NCBI GenBank assembly: GCA_045545475.1
Contig: JAZQAZ010000010.1
Location: forward strand, 96,001 to 160,000
DNA length: 64,000 bases
Source of the DNA: Clostridia bacterium
GTDB taxonomy: Bacteria; Bacillota; Clostridia; CAKSNL01; HGM11501
Reading direction: 5' to 3'
This document shows, piece by piece, positions 5,089 through 30,426 of this stretch. Position 1 is the stretch's first letter; each line of letters starts with the position of its first letter. The translations under genes were made by a program, and so were the position numbers. The notes under the pieces are model-generated. The model saw only the letters and a list, made by a program, of their open reading frames with translations, had not been told where the DNA came from and searched no databases.

Positions 5089-5252
5089 TGGCGGAGCAAA
5101 TGCTTTAATATCCGAACTTTCTCCATTAGGACTTCCGGGGTCCCCGAAAAGCCGCTGGCTTTGTGGGGAAAAGGAAGAGCAAGGGAGTGGGCGGATATTT
5201 TCGCCGTATGGCGAAAACGGAGTTAAACGCACTTTGCTCTGACGTGGCGGAG
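5089..5252. mobile_element. ~156-bp miniature element at the tRNA 3' end
   Basis: TGGCGGAG (tRNA 3' end) duplicated at 5089 and 5245; imperfect IR CGGAGCAAA/TTTGCTCTG. Confidence 0.5.
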
Positions 5253-5302
5253 ACGGAGGGATTCGAACCCTCGTGTCCGGAAGGGCAAACGCATTTCGAG
5301 TG
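5245..5302 (-). pseudogene. 3' half of host tRNA-Ser(CGA) (left junction of element)
   Basis: Minus strand reads CACTCGAAATGCG-variable arm-GAGGGTTCGAATCCCTC-CGTCTCCGCCA; tRNA similarity stops at the anticodon. Confidence 0.85.
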
Positions 5303-24731: not shown

Positions 24732-25606
<875 letters not shown>

Positions 25607-25634
25607 ACCTATATGGAGGTGAGAACATTCGGGA

Positions 25635-26090
25635 ATGAATAAATCAAAAATTCGGTGTACTTTTGCCGGGCACAGTGAGATTCATAACTCAAATCTTGTT
25701 GAAGAAATAAAGGCTACTGCAAAAGAATTGATTATCGAAAATGGTGTTAATGAGTTCTGGGTAGGTCATTACGGTGACTTTGATCATTATGCCGCAAAAG
25801 CAGTAAGGGAACTCAAGCGGGAGTATGACATAGAGCTTGTACTTGTAATTCCATATCTTACAAAGGAAATCGAAGAATACAAAGAAGACTATTATAAAAA
25901 TTTTGATGCGATAATTATGGCAGACATACCCCAAACAACACCTACAAAATTAAGAATTATAAAAGCAAATCAGTATATGGTAAATGAGTCTGACTACTTG
26001 ATTTGCTATGTGAAAAATACTTGGGGAGGAGCTGCGAAGACATTAGAATATGCAAGTCGTAAGAAAAAAACAATTTACAACTTAGGATAA
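25635..26090 (+). CDS. SLOG-superfamily (YpsA/DUF1273-like) protein
   Basis: CTFAGH, FWVGHYGDFD, NQYMVNESDYLICYV..WGGA. Confidence 0.75.
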   Translation: MNKSKIRCTFAGHSEIHNSNLVEEIKATAKELIIENGVNEFWVGHYGDFDHYAAKAVRELKREYDIELVLVIPYLTKEIEEYKEDYYKNFDAIIMADIPQTTPTKLRIIKANQYMVNESDYLICYVKNTWGGAAKTLEYASRKKKTIYNLG

Positions 26091-26183
26091 ATGACATGTA
26101 TAGCAAATTAAAAAAATACAAAAGCACCCACTTTTTTAACTCCTGCCATTGAAAGTAGTAAAAGCATATGTTAAAATGTCAAT

Positions 26184-26284
26184 GTAAAAATGGTAAGCAG
26201 TTAAAATGGTAAGCAGTTAAGCAGGTATTGGTATGTGCATCCTTGGGATAGGTGTGTGCATTTATACTTGCTTGTTATTTTTTT
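26184..26284 (+). ncRNA. Putative small RNA, unit 1 (~100 nt)
   Basis: Shared 35-nt leader, AAGCAGGTAT/ATACTTGCTT stem with G-U pairs, T-rich end. Confidence 0.55.
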
Positions 26285-26428
26285 GAAGGAAAACTAAATA
26301 GTTTTCGGGGAACTGATTGCATATTAACTTGCAGAATCACATATTTTCTTAAAATATTTTTCTGAAAAATACCCTTTATTTTTTCTCCTGGTCTTGTTTT
26401 GAGAAAAATAATGTGGTAAACTATGTGT

Positions 26429-26533
26429 GTAAAAATGGTAAGCAGTTAAAACGGTAAGCAGTTAAGCAGGTATTGGCGTATGCCTTTTCTTAGGATAGGT
26501 GTGTGCATTTATACTTGCTTTTTCTCATTTTTT
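26429..26533 (+). ncRNA. Putative small RNA, unit 2 (~100 nt, paralog of unit 1)
   Basis: Same leader and outer stem; inner GCGTATGCCT/AGGTGTGTGC pairs only through G-U. Confidence 0.55.
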
Positions 26534-26629
26534 ACGGAAAACAAACTTTTTAGCAGAATAAAAAAATTTATACCTTCAATTTTAGCTCCACCGCTACCAA
26601 TTAGTATTTACATATGCTAAAATAGCACT

Positions 26630-26805
26630 GTAAAAATGGTAAGCAGTTAAAACGGTAAGCAGTTTAGATGGTTTTTAAGGGTAACAAATTTACTCACAAA
26701 ACCGTCGGGGTTTTTGTCAAACCTTGTAAGAAGACGAGGGTACACATAAGCCTTTCCGACGGGAGAAGTATGCCCAAACGCCTTTTTTAAGGTGTTCGGC
26801 ACAAC
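26630..26805 (+). ncRNA. Putative structured RNA, unit 3 (paralog of the 5' part of unit 4)
   Basis: Leader plus hairpins that vary compensatorily against unit 4 (AACCTTGT/ACGAGGGTACAC; TGCCCAAACGCC/GGTGTTCGGCA). Confidence 0.5.
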
Positions 26806-26921
26806 AAATTATTTCAAGTCAAAACAAACGATTTTTGTATTAAGAAAAAACAATTTACAAATTTATATTTAATTTAGCGCCACCTCTACTCAAGAGGGTT
26901 TACATATGTTAAAATAACAGT

Positions 26922-27766
26922 GTAAAGATGGTAAGCAGTTAAAATTGTAAGCAGTTGCGGTAACTTTAGTTACTGATAGTTTTTTCAGGAGATTAACCAT
27001 AAGTTCTTGTGAACCTTTACAAGTCGTAAAGAGTACACCAAAACTTTTATTACAGGAGATATTGTCTGAATACTCATTGAGTGTTCGGCAAGTAAACGGT
27101 ATGACTGAAGAGCGATTATGCTCATTTGCAGTCTGTGGAGTGGTAAAGCTACGGGATAACTATGTCCTGAAGCTCTATCTAAAAATTAAATATTACGGAA
27201 ACAAAAAGAATGTAGATTTAGCCTTAAATGGCTTATTTCTGCATTCTTTTTTTATCTAAATATCGAATGGAAACCAAAACTTTTGAAGAGTTCTATCGGC
27301 ACATCCAGCCCTGCTCGGCAGGAATGTGTACGGACAAAATTTTGTGGAACAACGAAAATGAAATGTGCAAGCTTTTAACGGTTTTCCTTGCACAGCAAAG
27401 TCGGGCGAAAAAGAGCCTCACTTTGTTACTTAAAATCCAGGATGTGAGCAGACATCCGGACACAGTAGCGGCTGTGAAAACACATTCATATGTCACCGCT
27501 TATGGCATATTTCAGCATCGGCATTTTATGCACCTGAGTTTAGCAGGTTGATGCTACCGCCGGATTTTTAAGTCCAAATAACAAAATAGCGGTAATATTA
27601 CTAACCTGGCAGTTAGCTTCATACTAAAGGGAGACAGAGATTAAAAAAGCACACGAAAGTGCCGTAAATATGCTGTTTTCCATTAAGTCAAACAAGGAAA
27701 TACAGAGGTAACAGATACAAAAAGCTCAGTGCCATAGCTATGCCCTTGCGAAAGAAAGGGATTAAA
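26922..27766 (+). ncRNA. Putative long structured RNA / leader (unit 4) running into the tyrosine recombinase gene
   Basis: More than 10 consecutive hairpins, several with + strand G-U pairs; no credible ORF. Confidence 0.45.
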
Positions 27767-28633
27767 ATGAAAACTGCAATATACAAGAATTTAGAAGTTC
27801 AGTACAACAAGTTGTTCCGTCACCTGAAAGTTGGCAGTTTCAAAACGAGAGAGCGTTACGGCAAGGCGTTCAAACGCTTTATGGTATTTCTGGCAAAAGA
27901 GTACCGATTGCAAAAGCTTTGCAACATTTCCGAAAAGCATATACTTGCATACGTTTCGTATATGCAAAAGAAAGGTCTGTCAGCTTCGACCATCAAGACC
28001 GAGCTTGCCGCCATTCGTTTCTTCCACGACAATATGCCGTACACGAGAAGCACATTGCCGAGCAATGAGGACTTAGACCTCAAAAAGCGTACCTTTGGTG
28101 GTGCGGACAGAACCTGGACTTCTCCGGAATTTAACCATATGCTCATTGCCGCAATTGATAACAAGGATTATCAGGCGATTCTGTGCCTTGCGAGATACGC
28201 TGGTCTTCGCTTGGAGGAATGCTTCCGCATCGACACCAATGATGCAAAAAACGCCCTTGATACAGGCAATCTGCTTGTCAAGGGCAAGGGTGGACTTTGG
28301 AGATATGTACCTATCAATGAGTCTATCAGAATTACATTCCGTGATATGTTAAAGATAACTCCCATTGGAGAAAAACTGTTTGTGCGACCTTACGACAAGA
28401 CGCATCTTGCAATGAAAAGACTGCAATGCTTTATTGCGTATCACAGAAAAAGATTTACTGAAAACACAATTACTTTCCACGGACTTCGACACACCTTTGC
28501 ACATGAGCAGTACAACAAGTTCATTGAACAAGGTTACTCTGACTTTATGGCTCGTAAAAAGGTATCGGAGCTACTCGGGCATCACCGTGATGATGTAACG
28601 AGAATTTATTTGTCGGGCGGTGATGATGTATGA
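27767..28633 (+). CDS. Tyrosine recombinase (288 aa) with N-terminal core-binding domain
   Basis: R (GLRLEE), K (KGKGG), HGLR, LGH, Y (TRIY) all present. Confidence 0.9.
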   Translation: MKTAIYKNLEVQYNKLFRHLKVGSFKTRERYGKAFKRFMVFLAKEYRLQKLCNISEKHILAYVSYMQKKGLSASTIKTELAAIRFFHDNMPYTRSTLPSNEDLDLKKRTFGGADRTWTSPEFNHMLIAAIDNKDYQAILCLARYAGLRLEECFRIDTNDAKNALDTGNLLVKGKGGLWRYVPINESIRITFRDMLKITPIGEKLFVRPYDKTHLAMKRLQCFIAYHRKRFTENTITFHGLRHTFAHEQYNKFIEQGYSDFMARKKVSELLGHHRDDVTRIYLSGGDDV

Positions 28634-28839
28634 CCAAAAAGAAAAATCTTTATACAAAAATGCTCAAAGATTACCCCGATGTATTAAACGTAAATCAAAT
28701 GTGCAAGGCTTTGGGAGGAATCAGCACAAAGACGGGCTACAAGCTTCTTAAAGAAAAGAAGATTGAAAGCATAAAGGTCGGTCGGGAATATAAGATAGCC
28801 AAAATAAATTTGATAGATTTCATCACAAATAACGGCTAA
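28630..28839 (+). CDS. Excisionase-like HTH_17 protein
   Basis: YPDVLNVNQMCKALGGISTKTGYKLLKE...KVGREYKI; coupled to the recombinase stop. Confidence 0.85.
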   Translation: MTKKKNLYTKMLKDYPDVLNVNQMCKALGGISTKTGYKLLKEKKIESIKVGREYKIAKINLIDFITNNG

Positions 28840-28843
28840 AATC

Positions 28844-28895
28844 TTTACAAAAGCACCTGCTTTTGGTATAATAATTAAATAATAGCAGGTGCTTT
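28844..28895 (+). promoter_or_regulatory. Integrase promoter overlapped by a 12-bp inverted repeat
   Basis: TTTACA-17-TATAAT; AAAGCACCTGCT (28850) / AGCAGGTGCTTT (28884). Confidence 0.6.
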
Positions 28896-28936
28896 ACTTC
28901 CCGAAAGGAGGATTTATTTAAAGGAGGTAAAACACT

Positions 28937-30196
28937 ATGAAAAGAAAAGATATAAATGTCTATATAAGAGACAAAAAAGGTTATTACTATGCTGTTATAG
29001 TTTATAAAAATGCACAAGGCAAGCGAAAAGAAAAGTGGTTTCCGACTAAATTGCAGATTCGCGGTAACAAGAAAAAAGCAGAAGCGATTGCAGATCAGAT
29101 CCTTGAAGAATTTGAAATTCCTGCCGAGGATTTGTGTTTGAAAGAGAAGAGTACAAAGCTTGGCAAGAATTGTATTGCAAATGCTACGCTTGACGATTTG
29201 ACACAATCTCAGGTTGCAAATTTGTTGTTCTCGGATTACATCATAAAGTATTTGCCGCTGACGAGAAAAAGGCGAAGAAAGATTGAAGACACTACATATT
29301 CAGGCTATGAGGCAAACGTAAAAAGCGTTGTCGCTCCTTATTTTGCAAAGAAAAAGATTAAGCTTAAGGATCTGACGGCAAAAGACATTCAGGACTTTTA
29401 CGACAAGCAACTTGAACGTGTAAAACCAAACTCGGTTATTCGATACCACGCAATCATAAGACTTTCTCTGTGCCACGCAAGAAAGATGCGATACATCAAG
29501 GAAAATCCCATTGAAGAGGTGGAAAAGCCCGAGAAGAATCAGTTTATCGGCAAATTCTATACGGCTGAAGAACTTACCAAACTTATAGAGTTAGCCAAAG
29601 GCACAAAGCTTGAAATTCCCGTTATTATGGGCGGTTTTTACGGACTTCGCAGAAGTGAGGTTGTGGGATTGAGATGGTCGGCAATAGACTTTGAGAACAA
29701 CATATTTTACATCAATCACACGGTAACAACTCCGCAAATTGACGGTGTAACCAAAATTGTTGCAAAGGACAGAGCAAAGACTAAATCAAGTTTGAGAGCC
29801 TTACCACTTGGCAAAGATGTTAAAGAAATACTTCTTTGCAAAAAGCAACAGCAGGAAGAGTACCGCAAGAAGTTCAAAAGCTCTTATAACAAGAAATGGC
29901 TTGATTATGTGATGGTTGATGAATTAGGTGATTTAATTACACCCGATTACATTACCGGAGCATTCAAAAGCTTTTTGGCAAAACATGAGCTTCGTGAGAT
30001 ACGCTTCCACGATCTTCGTCACACCTGTGCTTCGTTGCTTCTTAACAAAGGCAAGCACGAGGGAATAACGCTTAAAGACATTCAGGTATGGCTTGGACAC
30101 AGCGACTTTTCGACTACTGCGAATACATATTCACATCTTGATGCAACGTCAAAAGGATTTTCGCTAAGTGCGTTAGAGAAGGCTATAACATTCTAA
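28937..30196 (+). CDS. int: Tyrosine site-specific integrase (ICE/phage type) with N-terminal arm-binding domain
   Basis: GLRRSE, KTKSS, FHDLRHT, LGHS, ANTY; lies at element end. Confidence 0.92.
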   Translation: MKRKDINVYIRDKKGYYYAVIVYKNAQGKRKEKWFPTKLQIRGNKKKAEAIADQILEEFEIPAEDLCLKEKSTKLGKNCIANATLDDLTQSQVANLLFSDYIIKYLPLTRKRRRKIEDTTYSGYEANVKSVVAPYFAKKKIKLKDLTAKDIQDFYDKQLERVKPNSVIRYHAIIRLSLCHARKMRYIKENPIEEVEKPEKNQFIGKFYTAEELTKLIELAKGTKLEIPVIMGGFYGLRRSEVVGLRWSAIDFENNIFYINHTVTTPQIDGVTKIVAKDRAKTKSSLRALPLGKDVKEILLCKKQQQEEYRKKFKSSYNKKWLDYVMVDELGDLITPDYITGAFKSFLAKHELREIRFHDLRHTCASLLLNKGKHEGITLKDIQVWLGHSDFSTTANTYSHLDATSKGFSLSALEKAITF

Positions 30197-30296
30197 AATG
30201 AAAAAAGTAACCTATACTTTTTCACTATTCACTATTACTTATTACTTCCGCCAAAATCGACAGTAAGAGAGTAGTGAAAAGTGAAGAGGTAAAAAG

Positions 30297-30335
30297 TAAA
30301 ATCGACAGGGCTCTCTGTCGAACCCTGTCGATTTT
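30297..30335 (-). terminator. Terminator of the element-borne tRNA
   Basis: AAAATCGACAGGG...CCCTGTCGATTTT. Confidence 0.7.
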
Positions 30336-30426
30336 GGCGGAGAAGGTGGGATTCGAACCCACGTGCCGGAATTACCGACAAACTGATTTCGAGTCAGCCC
30401 CGTTATGACCGCTTCGATACTTCTCC
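30335..30426 (-). tRNA. tRNA-Ser(CGA), intact, inside the element
   Basis: GGAGAAG/CTTCTCC acceptor, G73, encoded CCA, GCTGA-CTCGAAA-TCAGT anticodon arm, long variable arm, GTTCGAATC T loop. Confidence 0.95.

Follow-up and report, generated by a model that had tools for sequence, protein, structure and literature searches.

Attenuation and antitermination systems of mobile elements include lambda nut, HK022 put, the P4 CI RNA and the RfaH/ops leaders. Integron attC and CTX phage attP are folded single-stranded DNA (ssDNA) substrates of tyrosine recombinases, and in TnpI-IRS of Tn4430 and Tn5401 as well as in Xer-dif modules the site lies beside the recombinase gene, as is the rule in single-recombinase systems of the Xer and TnpI types. 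Among published sources, PMC5737381 discusses attC, and PMC11208158 describes the IS110 bridge RNA and the IS1111 seekRNA as structured non-coding RNAs (ncRNA) directly upstream of a mobile-element recombinase gene. Here, we analysed an 845-nt leader (26922-27766, + strand) directly upstream of a tyrosine recombinase gene in a ~25-kb island inserted in tRNA-Ser; all coordinates refer to the window, the 64,000-nt stretch of a Clostridia bacterium genome (GenBank assembly GCA_045545475.1, contig JAZQAZ010000010.1, positions 96,001 to 160,000) that contains it. Rfam holds only a 126-nt fragment of this element, as an unexplained motif named xerDC RNA (RF03062, type Cis-reg); we found no function for that motif in the parts of the literature searched, and a term search of the main text of PMC5737381 did not return it. 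We conclude that the most likely role of the leader is to set the time at which the excision genes of the island are expressed. An RNA leader is favoured because of a conserved promoter, a + strand terminator with a U-tract, a fixed spacing to the ribosome-binding site, and covarying helices with a pseudoknot.

On the + strand, the whole leader reached a minimum free energy (MFE) of -240.8 compared to -194.61 +/- 6.94 for its shuffles (z -6.66; 0/20 shuffles as good), and on the - strand of -213.8 compared to -181.25 +/- 7.51 (z -4.33; 20 shuffles), i.e. it folds better than shuffled sequence on both strands. When 150-nt segments were folded in a sliding scan with 60 shuffles each, seven successive segments with starts from 26985 to 27435 had z(+) values of -2.29 to -5.37; in the recombinase open reading frame (ORF), which served as comparison, z(+) was above -1.5 in 10 of 12 segments. 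A mechanical scan of the leader lists two frames, of 65 aa (27062-27259) and 107 aa (27228-27551). Neither has a Pfam match that counts (best E 0.062), and tblastn against related loci, of which we took 80 from Clostridia genomes, mostly gut metagenome-assembled genomes, showed both to be interrupted by in-frame stops or split in every matching locus (80-94% DNA identity). Based on the shuffle z-scores, the lack of a Pfam family for either ORF and the interruption of both in relatives, we conclude that the leader is non-coding and folded, more strongly on the + strand.

These results bear on an initial annotation of this DNA, which had been made from the letters alone and had proposed a large, strand-specific folded non-coding element without a credible ORF. 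Folding, conservation and the broken ORFs bear this out, and all eight hairpins that it listed are found where it had placed them and belong to the MFE fold. The bias towards G-T mismatches on the + strand, from which it had argued for selection on a single-stranded molecule, is present and only moderate, with 58 G-U cells compared to 28 A-C cells in alignment A3. A decayed gene was ruled out since neither frame is kept in relatives and 10 stop-to-stop frames of the leader had no Pfam family at E < 0.06. Similarly, an Rfam scan by E-value of 25500-29000 returned xerDC plus noise only, with no intron and no other large RNA, leaving the element as a real one.

The leader consists of two modules, module A (26907-27253) and module B (27254-27766). 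Module B, of ~510 nt, carries two helices (Ha and Hb), a pseudoknotted domain (27436-27620) and then ~135 nt of near-invariant motifs up to the ribosome-binding site:

27290..27335, + strand: helix Ha (27300-27328) with a CUGYYY loop, GUYC/GGAC flanks and the near-invariant TGTACGGAC
27364..27394, + strand: helix Hb, 8 bp with a 15-nt loop
27424..27622, + strand: extended xerDC-like domain with H0, H1, P1, P2, P3, P4 and a kissing loop
27440-27457, + strand: H0
27461-27476, + strand: H1
27467-27471 / 27496-27500, + strand: kissing-loop pseudoknot of the H1 loop with the P1 loop
27488-27510, + strand: P1
27514-27555, + strand: P2, three-way
27556-27593, + strand: P3
27594-27606, + strand: invariant tail AATATTACTAACC
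27608-27618, + strand: P4
27630..27766, + strand: 3' leader of near-constant length with GGAGACAG, CAGAGGTAAC, GCCATAGCTATGCCC and the ribosome-binding site
27630-27637, + strand: GGAGACAG
27703-27712, + strand: CAGAGGTAAC
27731-27745, + strand: GCCATAGCTATGCCC, the second copy of a 15-nt motif
27750-27760, + strand: ribosome-binding site GAAAGAAAGGG

We examined covariation in the domain in 33 sequences, using helices H0, H1, P1, P2, P2a, P2b, P3, P3a and P4 together with the pseudoknot. In the domain, 91.3% of the cells are paired compared to 25.9-45.7% when the 3' partners were slid, 30 of the 51 pairs have compensatory changes, and the covariation score is 0.222 compared to at most 0.053 for the slid versions. 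None of 500 shuffles reached the values observed in this test. The pseudoknot is paired in 100% of its cells and has three compensatory pairs. Outside the domain, helix Ha is 88% paired with compensatory changes in all nine of its pairs; the GUYC/GGAC helix that flanks it was observed by eye and is left out of the pair counts. Support for Hb is weaker, with 48.6% of the cells pairing in a column-wise count, because the pairing register differs between clades. We also observed that a 26-nt stretch at 27351-27376, in the region of Hb, recurs as a direct repeat with 85% identity at 28687-28712 in the coding sequence of the excisionase-like gene; alone, this is not significant.

The 3' leader differs from the domain in that RNAalifold on the last 155 nt returned 0 pairs and a pair scan of this part returned no truly covarying helix. 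Its spacing is kept: in the 32 related loci measured, GGAGACAG precedes the ATG by 129-140 nt, and in the window, from the coordinates, by 137 nt. Parts of the 3' leader can be aligned with the regions upstream of plasmid homologs of the recombinase. A pairing of GGAGACAG with downstream pyrimidine runs was considered and dropped, as it differs from locus to locus.

Among related loci, close relatives can be aligned across the whole leader; at 70-80% protein identity, the parts retained are the promoter with the boxes, the hairpin at 27204-27262, and 27450-27715. We built a covariance model of 198 positions (R1), which scores the window at 180 bits. Of the 49 loci with upstream DNA in which the recombinase is at least 71% identical to that of the window, R1 finds the domain in 48; 33 of these 48 loci are in the R1 seed and 15 are outside it. 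The exception is L040, in which the recombinase is 81% identical, 750 nt of upstream DNA are available, and the leader domain is altogether absent. Among 82 sources, R1 has 51 matches at E <= 1.2e-6, all of them on the strand of the gene and just upstream of it. The R1 element is single-copy in the genome of the window, and none is present in 13 other genomes of the order. A two-motif pattern gave seven matches in metagenome contigs, of which four are by chance and the three true ones all lie beside the recombinase or a remnant of it, and 0 matches in viral contigs. In one of these metagenome contigs (L112), the recombinase is internally deleted (residues 6-34 and 265-283 match) and the RNA domain is intact, with 177 bits in the R1 search.

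In loci where the identity of the downstream integrase drops to 22-35%, or where it is of another type (integrase range 22-98%), that of the recombinase remains 94-96%, indicating that leader and recombinase form a module of their own. Conservation upstream of homologous recombinases, a check named in the initial annotation, was found, and of its proposal that the RNA is paired with the recombinase, the tight genetic linkage holds; no observation points to the RNA, or folded ssDNA, serving the recombinase as a substrate or guide. Contigs often end inside the leader or just before the recombinase (L024, L026, L028-L031, L035, L039, L044, L053, L071 and others), and some genomes hold several copies on short contigs; both would fit a module that is mosaic or present in multiple copies and so interrupts assembly. 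Parts of the leader are covered by contigs of relatives, e.g. a 510-nt contig from an RNA library over 27146-27652, and as contigs these cannot show transcription, ends or strand. In five sequencing runs, only 6-8% of the sampled words were present.

The RF03062 model matches inside the domain:

27487..27606, + strand: match to xerDC RNA (RF03062, type Cis-reg) over the full model (1-126), 42.3 bits, E 1.3e-4 over 3.5 kb

This score is below the gathering score of 72.5, and the match is therefore not listed in a scan at the gathering threshold. Matches in the same relative place and on the same strand are present in 6 of 23 related homolog loci scanned, with recombinases 48-77% identical (L079, 55.1 bits; L084, 47.2; L082, 33.4; L053, 32.3; L085, 32.2; L087, 29.3); at E <= 1, none was found in L022/L077 (a 59% homolog), L081 and L088, or in the plasmids L104 and L105, which were scanned besides the 23. 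In a class sample of 151 genomes, xerDC was present in one, that of the window itself. The window element has all xerDC helices except the last inner hairpin, and P1, P2, P2b, P3 and P3a are supported by covariation in the 33 sequences; the three 3'-most hairpins of the initial annotation correspond to P1-P3 of the motif. The match ends 161 nt before the ATG on the same strand, in agreement with the context of RF03062 as taken from its name and Rfam type; in homologs the distance is 174-195 nt (L084, L079, L085 and L082), 159 nt (L053) and 282 nt (L087). Based on its alignment to the Rfam model, we conclude that the leader RNA is an enlarged, diverged relative of the uncharacterised xerDC motif. 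The 5' boxes, the terminator T1, Ha, Hb, H0, H1, the pseudoknot and the duplicated 15-nt motif are new relative to xerDC.

Module A has a promoter of the sigma-A type, a pair of GGTAAGCAGTT boxes at the 5' end of the RNA, hairpins and the intrinsic terminator T1:

26907..26915, + strand: extended -10 element of unit 4 (TGT + TAAAAT), with a putative transcription start near 26922
26930..26956, + strand: two direct GGTAAGCAGTT boxes, starting at 26930 and 26946, 16 nt apart, at ~+9 to +35 of the putative transcript
26958..26985, + strand: terminator-like small hairpin and T-run immediately downstream of the boxes, from a consensus scan
27063..27090, + strand: hairpin shared with unit 3 in the four-unit alignment (unit-3 homolog 26772-26799, GCCCAAACGCC / GGTGTTCGGC)
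27103..27133, + strand: two-tier hairpin GACTG..GAGC / GCTC..CAGTC, kept in only part of the close relatives
27153..27167, + strand: 15-nt motif GGGATAACTATGTCC, inside the hairpin 27152-27169
27204..27253, + strand: T1, predicted intrinsic terminator with a 9-bp outer stem (27208-27216/27238-27246), an inner hairpin (27220-27233) and U7 (27247-27253)

The promoter belongs to the last of four promoter-box units in tandem (26120-26976), which lie at 26120, 26365, 26566 and 26858 and are 200-290 nt each; the leader begins at the fourth. Each unit has a promoter and two or three GGTAAGCAGTT boxes. We compared 14 promoter regions, i.e. the four units of the window and 10 loci: in all 14, a -10 hexamer (TAAAAT, TATAAT, TATACT or TAAACT) lies 6 nt before a conserved GTAAA..GG, and several have a -35 element TTGnAA 17 nt upstream. 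The leader units contain eight GGTAAGCAGTT copies, exact or with one mismatch, all on the + strand; one more match with one mismatch is at 1330-1340 on the - strand, and no inverted copy of the box was found in the window. With up to two mismatches, 27 matches to GGTAAGCAGTT were found, compared to 15.3 +/- 3.9 expected by chance. Related loci have the boxes or variant tandem direct repeats of 15-16 nt, two and sometimes three, in the same 5' place, and other clades have different repeat sequences there. Most of the distant loci have a single promoter-box unit. Units 1 and 2 look like genes for ~90-nt small RNAs, each ending in a hairpin and T-run of which the third box is the 5' arm (read by eye), and the transcript region of unit 3 shows structure only when read on the + strand, with z -2.91 and -4.58 compared to +0.95 and -1.36.

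T1 lies ~300 nt downstream of the putative start. Its stem (27208-27246) has ~-17 kcal/mol directly before U7, as expected of an intrinsic terminator, and the outer stem can be extended by A-U pairs. A T1-like hairpin with a T-run lies between the boxes and the domain in 23 of the 27 loci with boxes; in most of these 23, the T-run starts ~500-520 nt before the ATG, and the length from T1 to the ATG is nearly constant across loci. In 24 sequences the outer stem is 93% paired, with an almost invariant sequence. RNAalifold on 26921-27445 of 10 close relatives gave 94 pairs, only four of them with compensatory changes, because these sequences are too similar to be informative; the hairpin 27063-27090 is among its helices, with two compensatory pairs. 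A pairing of the boxes with T1, in which a box would mimic the 5' arm of T1, is not supported, as the boxes differ in L052, L041 and L054 and T1 is unchanged.

The 15-nt motif (GGGAnAnnTATGYCC) has three copies in the window, at 26761-26775 (unit 3), 27153-27167 (unit 4) and 27731-27745 (before the ribosome-binding site). It recurs at matching relative places in many loci, within module A as well as 34-47 nt before the ATG, and is also present upstream of two plasmid homologs, at -47 (L104) and -36 (L105) from the ATG. The background is eight matches in 383,629 nt.

At the right end of the island, the leader is followed by the recombinase gene, a gene for an Xis-like protein, the integrase gene and the tRNA:

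27767..28633, + strand: tyrosine recombinase (rec), 288 aa, PF00589 at 55.4 bits and N-terminal SAM-like domains
28630..28839, + strand: excisionase-like HTH_17 protein (xis), 69 aa, start overlapping the recombinase stop (ATGA)
28937..30196, + strand: main integrase, 419 aa, beside tRNA-Ser
30335-30426, - strand: tRNA-Ser, adjoining the main integrase

With the stop of rec overlapping the start of xis, the two genes are in a rec-xis arrangement. We give about an even chance to the reading in which the region is a long 5' leader RNA that gates the rec-xis operon in cis, by attenuation and translational control. The leader would keep rec-xis off and let transcription through under some signal: most transcripts would end either at T1 or at the small hairpin that follows the boxes, a protein would control read-through via the 5' boxes or the 15-nt motif, and the folded domain together with the motif copy beside the ribosome-binding site would set translation or stability. 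The presence of the motif both in the transcripts of units 3 and 4 and shortly before the ATG suggests that one factor may recognise both places. The recombinase would be the likeliest autoregulator because no other protein is shared between the island and plasmid families with the motifs; the upstream motif copies could then be decoys.

Several observations weigh against cis-regulation of this kind. The proposed transcription start, termination and read-through are predicted from sequence signals, and a terminator/antiterminator switch linked to the xerDC domain was not found; no U-tract follows the end of the domain, which lies ~160 nt upstream of the ATG. Moreover, an ordinary attenuator would not need a covarying, pseudoknotted domain as large (~400 nt) and as ornate as this one. 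The last 135 nt, conserved in sequence and without a helix, would also fit recognition by a protein or at the DNA level. The outer stem of T1 hardly varies in sequence, which is unusual for a plain terminator, and with box sequences that differ between clades and a T1 that does not, simple box-T1 pairing is unsupported. Finally, the Rfam match is below its gathering score.

The recombinase is one of a family of 1802 proteins at E <= 1e-20, and with 55.4 bits against a cut-off of 27.1 it belongs to PF00589. R148, K174, H238, R241, H272 and Y281 are invariant in 15 sequences, and we take these to be the catalytic R-K-H-R-H-Y residues. The scores against TIGR02224 (66.8 vs 335.15) and TIGR02225 (56.9 vs 329.6) do not support XerC/XerD orthology. 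The top NCBIfam model, 'XerA / integron integrase', is far below its cut-off, and with the integron integrase model the protein reaches 45.2 where the cut-off is 265, over residues 23-196 only. It is a plain two-domain recombinase with no extra domain. Small plasmids of Brevibacillus (L104) and Bacillus cytotoxicus (L105) encode recombinases 44-47% identical to that of the window, preceded by 850-1500 nt of unannotated, highly structured DNA (z -6.15 and -8.88). In these upstream regions, long near-perfect palindromes with GAGACAG lie ~120-190 nt before the gene (L104, ~2759-2825; L105, within 2125-2970), and they may be recombination sites. Homologs are found on small non-mobilizable plasmids near par genes, as multimer resolvases are.

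It is unlikely, in our view, that the region ~27204-27766 or its core 27436-27620 is instead a functional RNA partner of the recombinase, i.e. a scaffold, cofactor or sensor in a ribonucleoprotein (RNP). Such a partnership would account for the co-inheritance of RNA and protein down to ~48% protein identity, for the size of the domain with its at least nine supported helices, kissing-loop pseudoknot and invariant single-stranded motifs, and for the identity of 94-96% within the recombinase-leader module while the integrase next to it is swapped; the structured DNA upstream of the plasmid homologs points the same way. Nothing looks programmable, however, as the conserved loops are invariant and not variable, and the protein is an ordinary 288-aa tyrosine recombinase. 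As targets, we compared the leader to the att region of the island and to the rest of the window. The longest words shared with att/tRNA were 7-11 nt, compared to a null mean of ~9 and null maxima of 12-14, in 10 of 10 loci, and nothing stood out in the rest of the window. Thus, complementarity to att/tRNA or to the rest of the island is no greater than chance, and the suggestion that the leader acts as a guide for the recombinase is not supported. In the parts of the literature searched, no RNA-guided tyrosine recombinase is described, and the consulted part of PMC13604230, a review of RNA-guided recombination, lists tyrosine recombinases only as protein-guided. The more specific proposal that the pseudoknotted RNA of ~400-560 nt (27204-27766) is a new large RNA class that works physically with the recombinase, as an RNP scaffold or as an allosteric sensor licensing recombination or excision, we regard as decidedly improbable. 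If it were true, this would be the first tyrosine recombinase family with an obligatory RNA component, and the plasmid relatives with their long structured upstream regions would be older versions of the partnership.

We also consider it quite unlikely that some of the conservation reflects a function at the DNA level, either through binding of the recombinase or Xis to res/dif-like sites or operators, or through a strand-specific fold as ssDNA (sso/oriT-like) at mobilisation. The habit of Xer-type and TnpI-type systems of keeping the site beside the gene speaks for it, as do the GAGACAG palindromes upstream of the plasmid homologs and the resolvase-like setting of homologs near par genes; moreover, the outer arms of T1, GGAGACAG, CAGAGGTAAC and the 15-nt motif are conserved in sequence rather than covarying. 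By contrast, H0, H1, P1, P2b, P3a, P4, Ha and the pseudoknot change in sequence yet keep their pairing, and covarying helices with a loop-loop pseudoknot are unlike double-stranded protein sites. Likewise, the U-tract terminator and the fixed spacing to the ribosome-binding site are features of RNA, and the window has no inverted copy of the box. Among the 18 island ORFs scanned, no relaxase or Rep domain, including rolling-circle Rep, was seen. Finally, in the loci, order genomes and metagenome contigs examined the element is never apart from the gene, and the two-motif pattern is not found in viral contigs.

That module A and the three units upstream of it are separate trans-acting small-RNA genes, serving as decoys or regulators, with the promoter of the recombinase downstream of T1, is very unlikely. 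Promoter and boxes are common to all four tandem units, units 1 and 2 (by eye) and unit 4 (at T1) end in terminator-like hairpins, the transcript region of unit 3 is structured on the + strand only, and units 3 and 4 carry the motif that recurs before the ribosome-binding site, all of which would fit small RNAs. Against this, no promoter-like site was found on the + strand in 27254-27766, most of the distant loci have a single unit, and the stretch between T1 and the ATG keeps its length as one unit would. That the leader is a spacer rich in hairpins by chance, or what is left of a decayed gene or intron, is hardly credible: the 107-aa frame resembles Xis over nine residues only (E 0.025 for a single comparison) and the 26-nt repeat described above could be a remnant, but the shuffle z-scores, the conservation, the covariation test, the linkage found with R1 and the lack of Pfam (E < 0.06 in 10 frames) and of Rfam intron or other large RNA matches contradict it.

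The limits of the island (5245-30365) are suggested by a 31-nt copy of the tRNA-Ser 3' end at 5245-5275, which is 90% identical. Its cargo, on the left side, is of defence type and includes GmrSD, Mrr, a PLD-helicase, a Macro-domain protein, two Fic proteins, an RNase III-like protein and a Gp49-like toxin; a serine recombinase (24795-25541) and a SLOG/YpsA-like protein (25635-26090) are also encoded. The main integrase appears, by eye, to have its own promoter (TTTACA-17-TATAAT) within a 12-bp inverted repeat AAAGCACCTGCT / AGCAGGTGCTTT (28842-28895), and a 19-nt stretch ahead of unit 1 (26117-26135) resembles this region. A perfect 17-nt inverted repeat (30247-30263 / 30325-30341) lies between the integrase stop and the tRNA, with one arm overlapping the tRNA 3' end.

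The excision decision of integrative islands in gut Clostridia is largely unexplained, and here a conserved RNA fold that is among the larger ones seen on a mobile element lies upstream of the genes of a widespread recombinase family. Its anatomy is now defined, with a promoter, 5' boxes, a terminator, a pseudoknotted domain and a motif duplicated at the ribosome-binding site, and a covariance model that finds the element is available. A regulatory leader would represent an excision switch of a new type; should the RNA bind the recombinase, RNA-dependent recombination would be extended to the tyrosine family.

Compared to described systems, the element is most readily set beside RF03062, with which it shares the strand, the place 160-190 nt upstream of an Xer-like tyrosine recombinase gene in Clostridia, and the helix order of a P1 hairpin, a three-way P2, a P3 with an inner hairpin and a 3' tail ..UACUnACC. 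It differs in its score of 42.3 bits, below the gathering score of 72.5, in the missing last inner hairpin, and in a fold at least three times the 126-nt model, with H0, H1, the H1-P1 kissing loop, Ha, Hb, T1 and the 135-nt 3' part as additions. Like OLE, GOLLD and ROOL, as presented in the consulted part of 10.1101/2024.12.08.627333, it is a fold of 400-560 nt with many covarying helices on a mobile element; unlike them, it is tied to a single gene family, at the 5' end of the gene, and it has no Rfam match to any of the three.

As in lambda nut, HK022 put, the P4 CI RNA and RfaH/ops, repeats close to the promoter precede at least one predicted intrinsic terminator, beyond which the putatively regulated genes lie. 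The island ORFs scanned include no NusG-like or N-like factor, and the boxes vary between clades whereas T1 does not. With TnpI-IRS and Xer-dif modules, the locus shares a small tyrosine recombinase (~285-300 aa) that lacks an arm-binding domain, and short repeats upstream of the recombinase's own gene, making autoregulation plausible. By contrast, there is no inverted core pair of repeats, the repeats are ~830 nt from the gene, and conservation is mostly in RNA-type helices.

Similarly, attC and CTX attP are strand-specific folded elements beside an Xer- or integron-like recombinase. The fold here is multi-helix and pseudoknotted and not a single imperfect hairpin, no cassette array and no genes generating ssDNA were seen, and promoter and terminator signals are present; the upstream units, at 200-290 nt, are promoter-plus-RNA units without ORFs and do not make the locus an integron. 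Finally, like the IS110 bridge RNA and the IS1111 seekRNA, as far as the consulted part of their description goes, the element is a structured non-coding RNA directly upstream of a recombinase gene on a mobile element. It has no variable loops matching target or donor DNA, as an RNA-guided system would, and the enzyme is a tyrosine recombinase and not of the DEDD/serine type; unlike those RNAs, the RNA here belongs to an mRNA leader that has a terminator and a ribosome-binding site.

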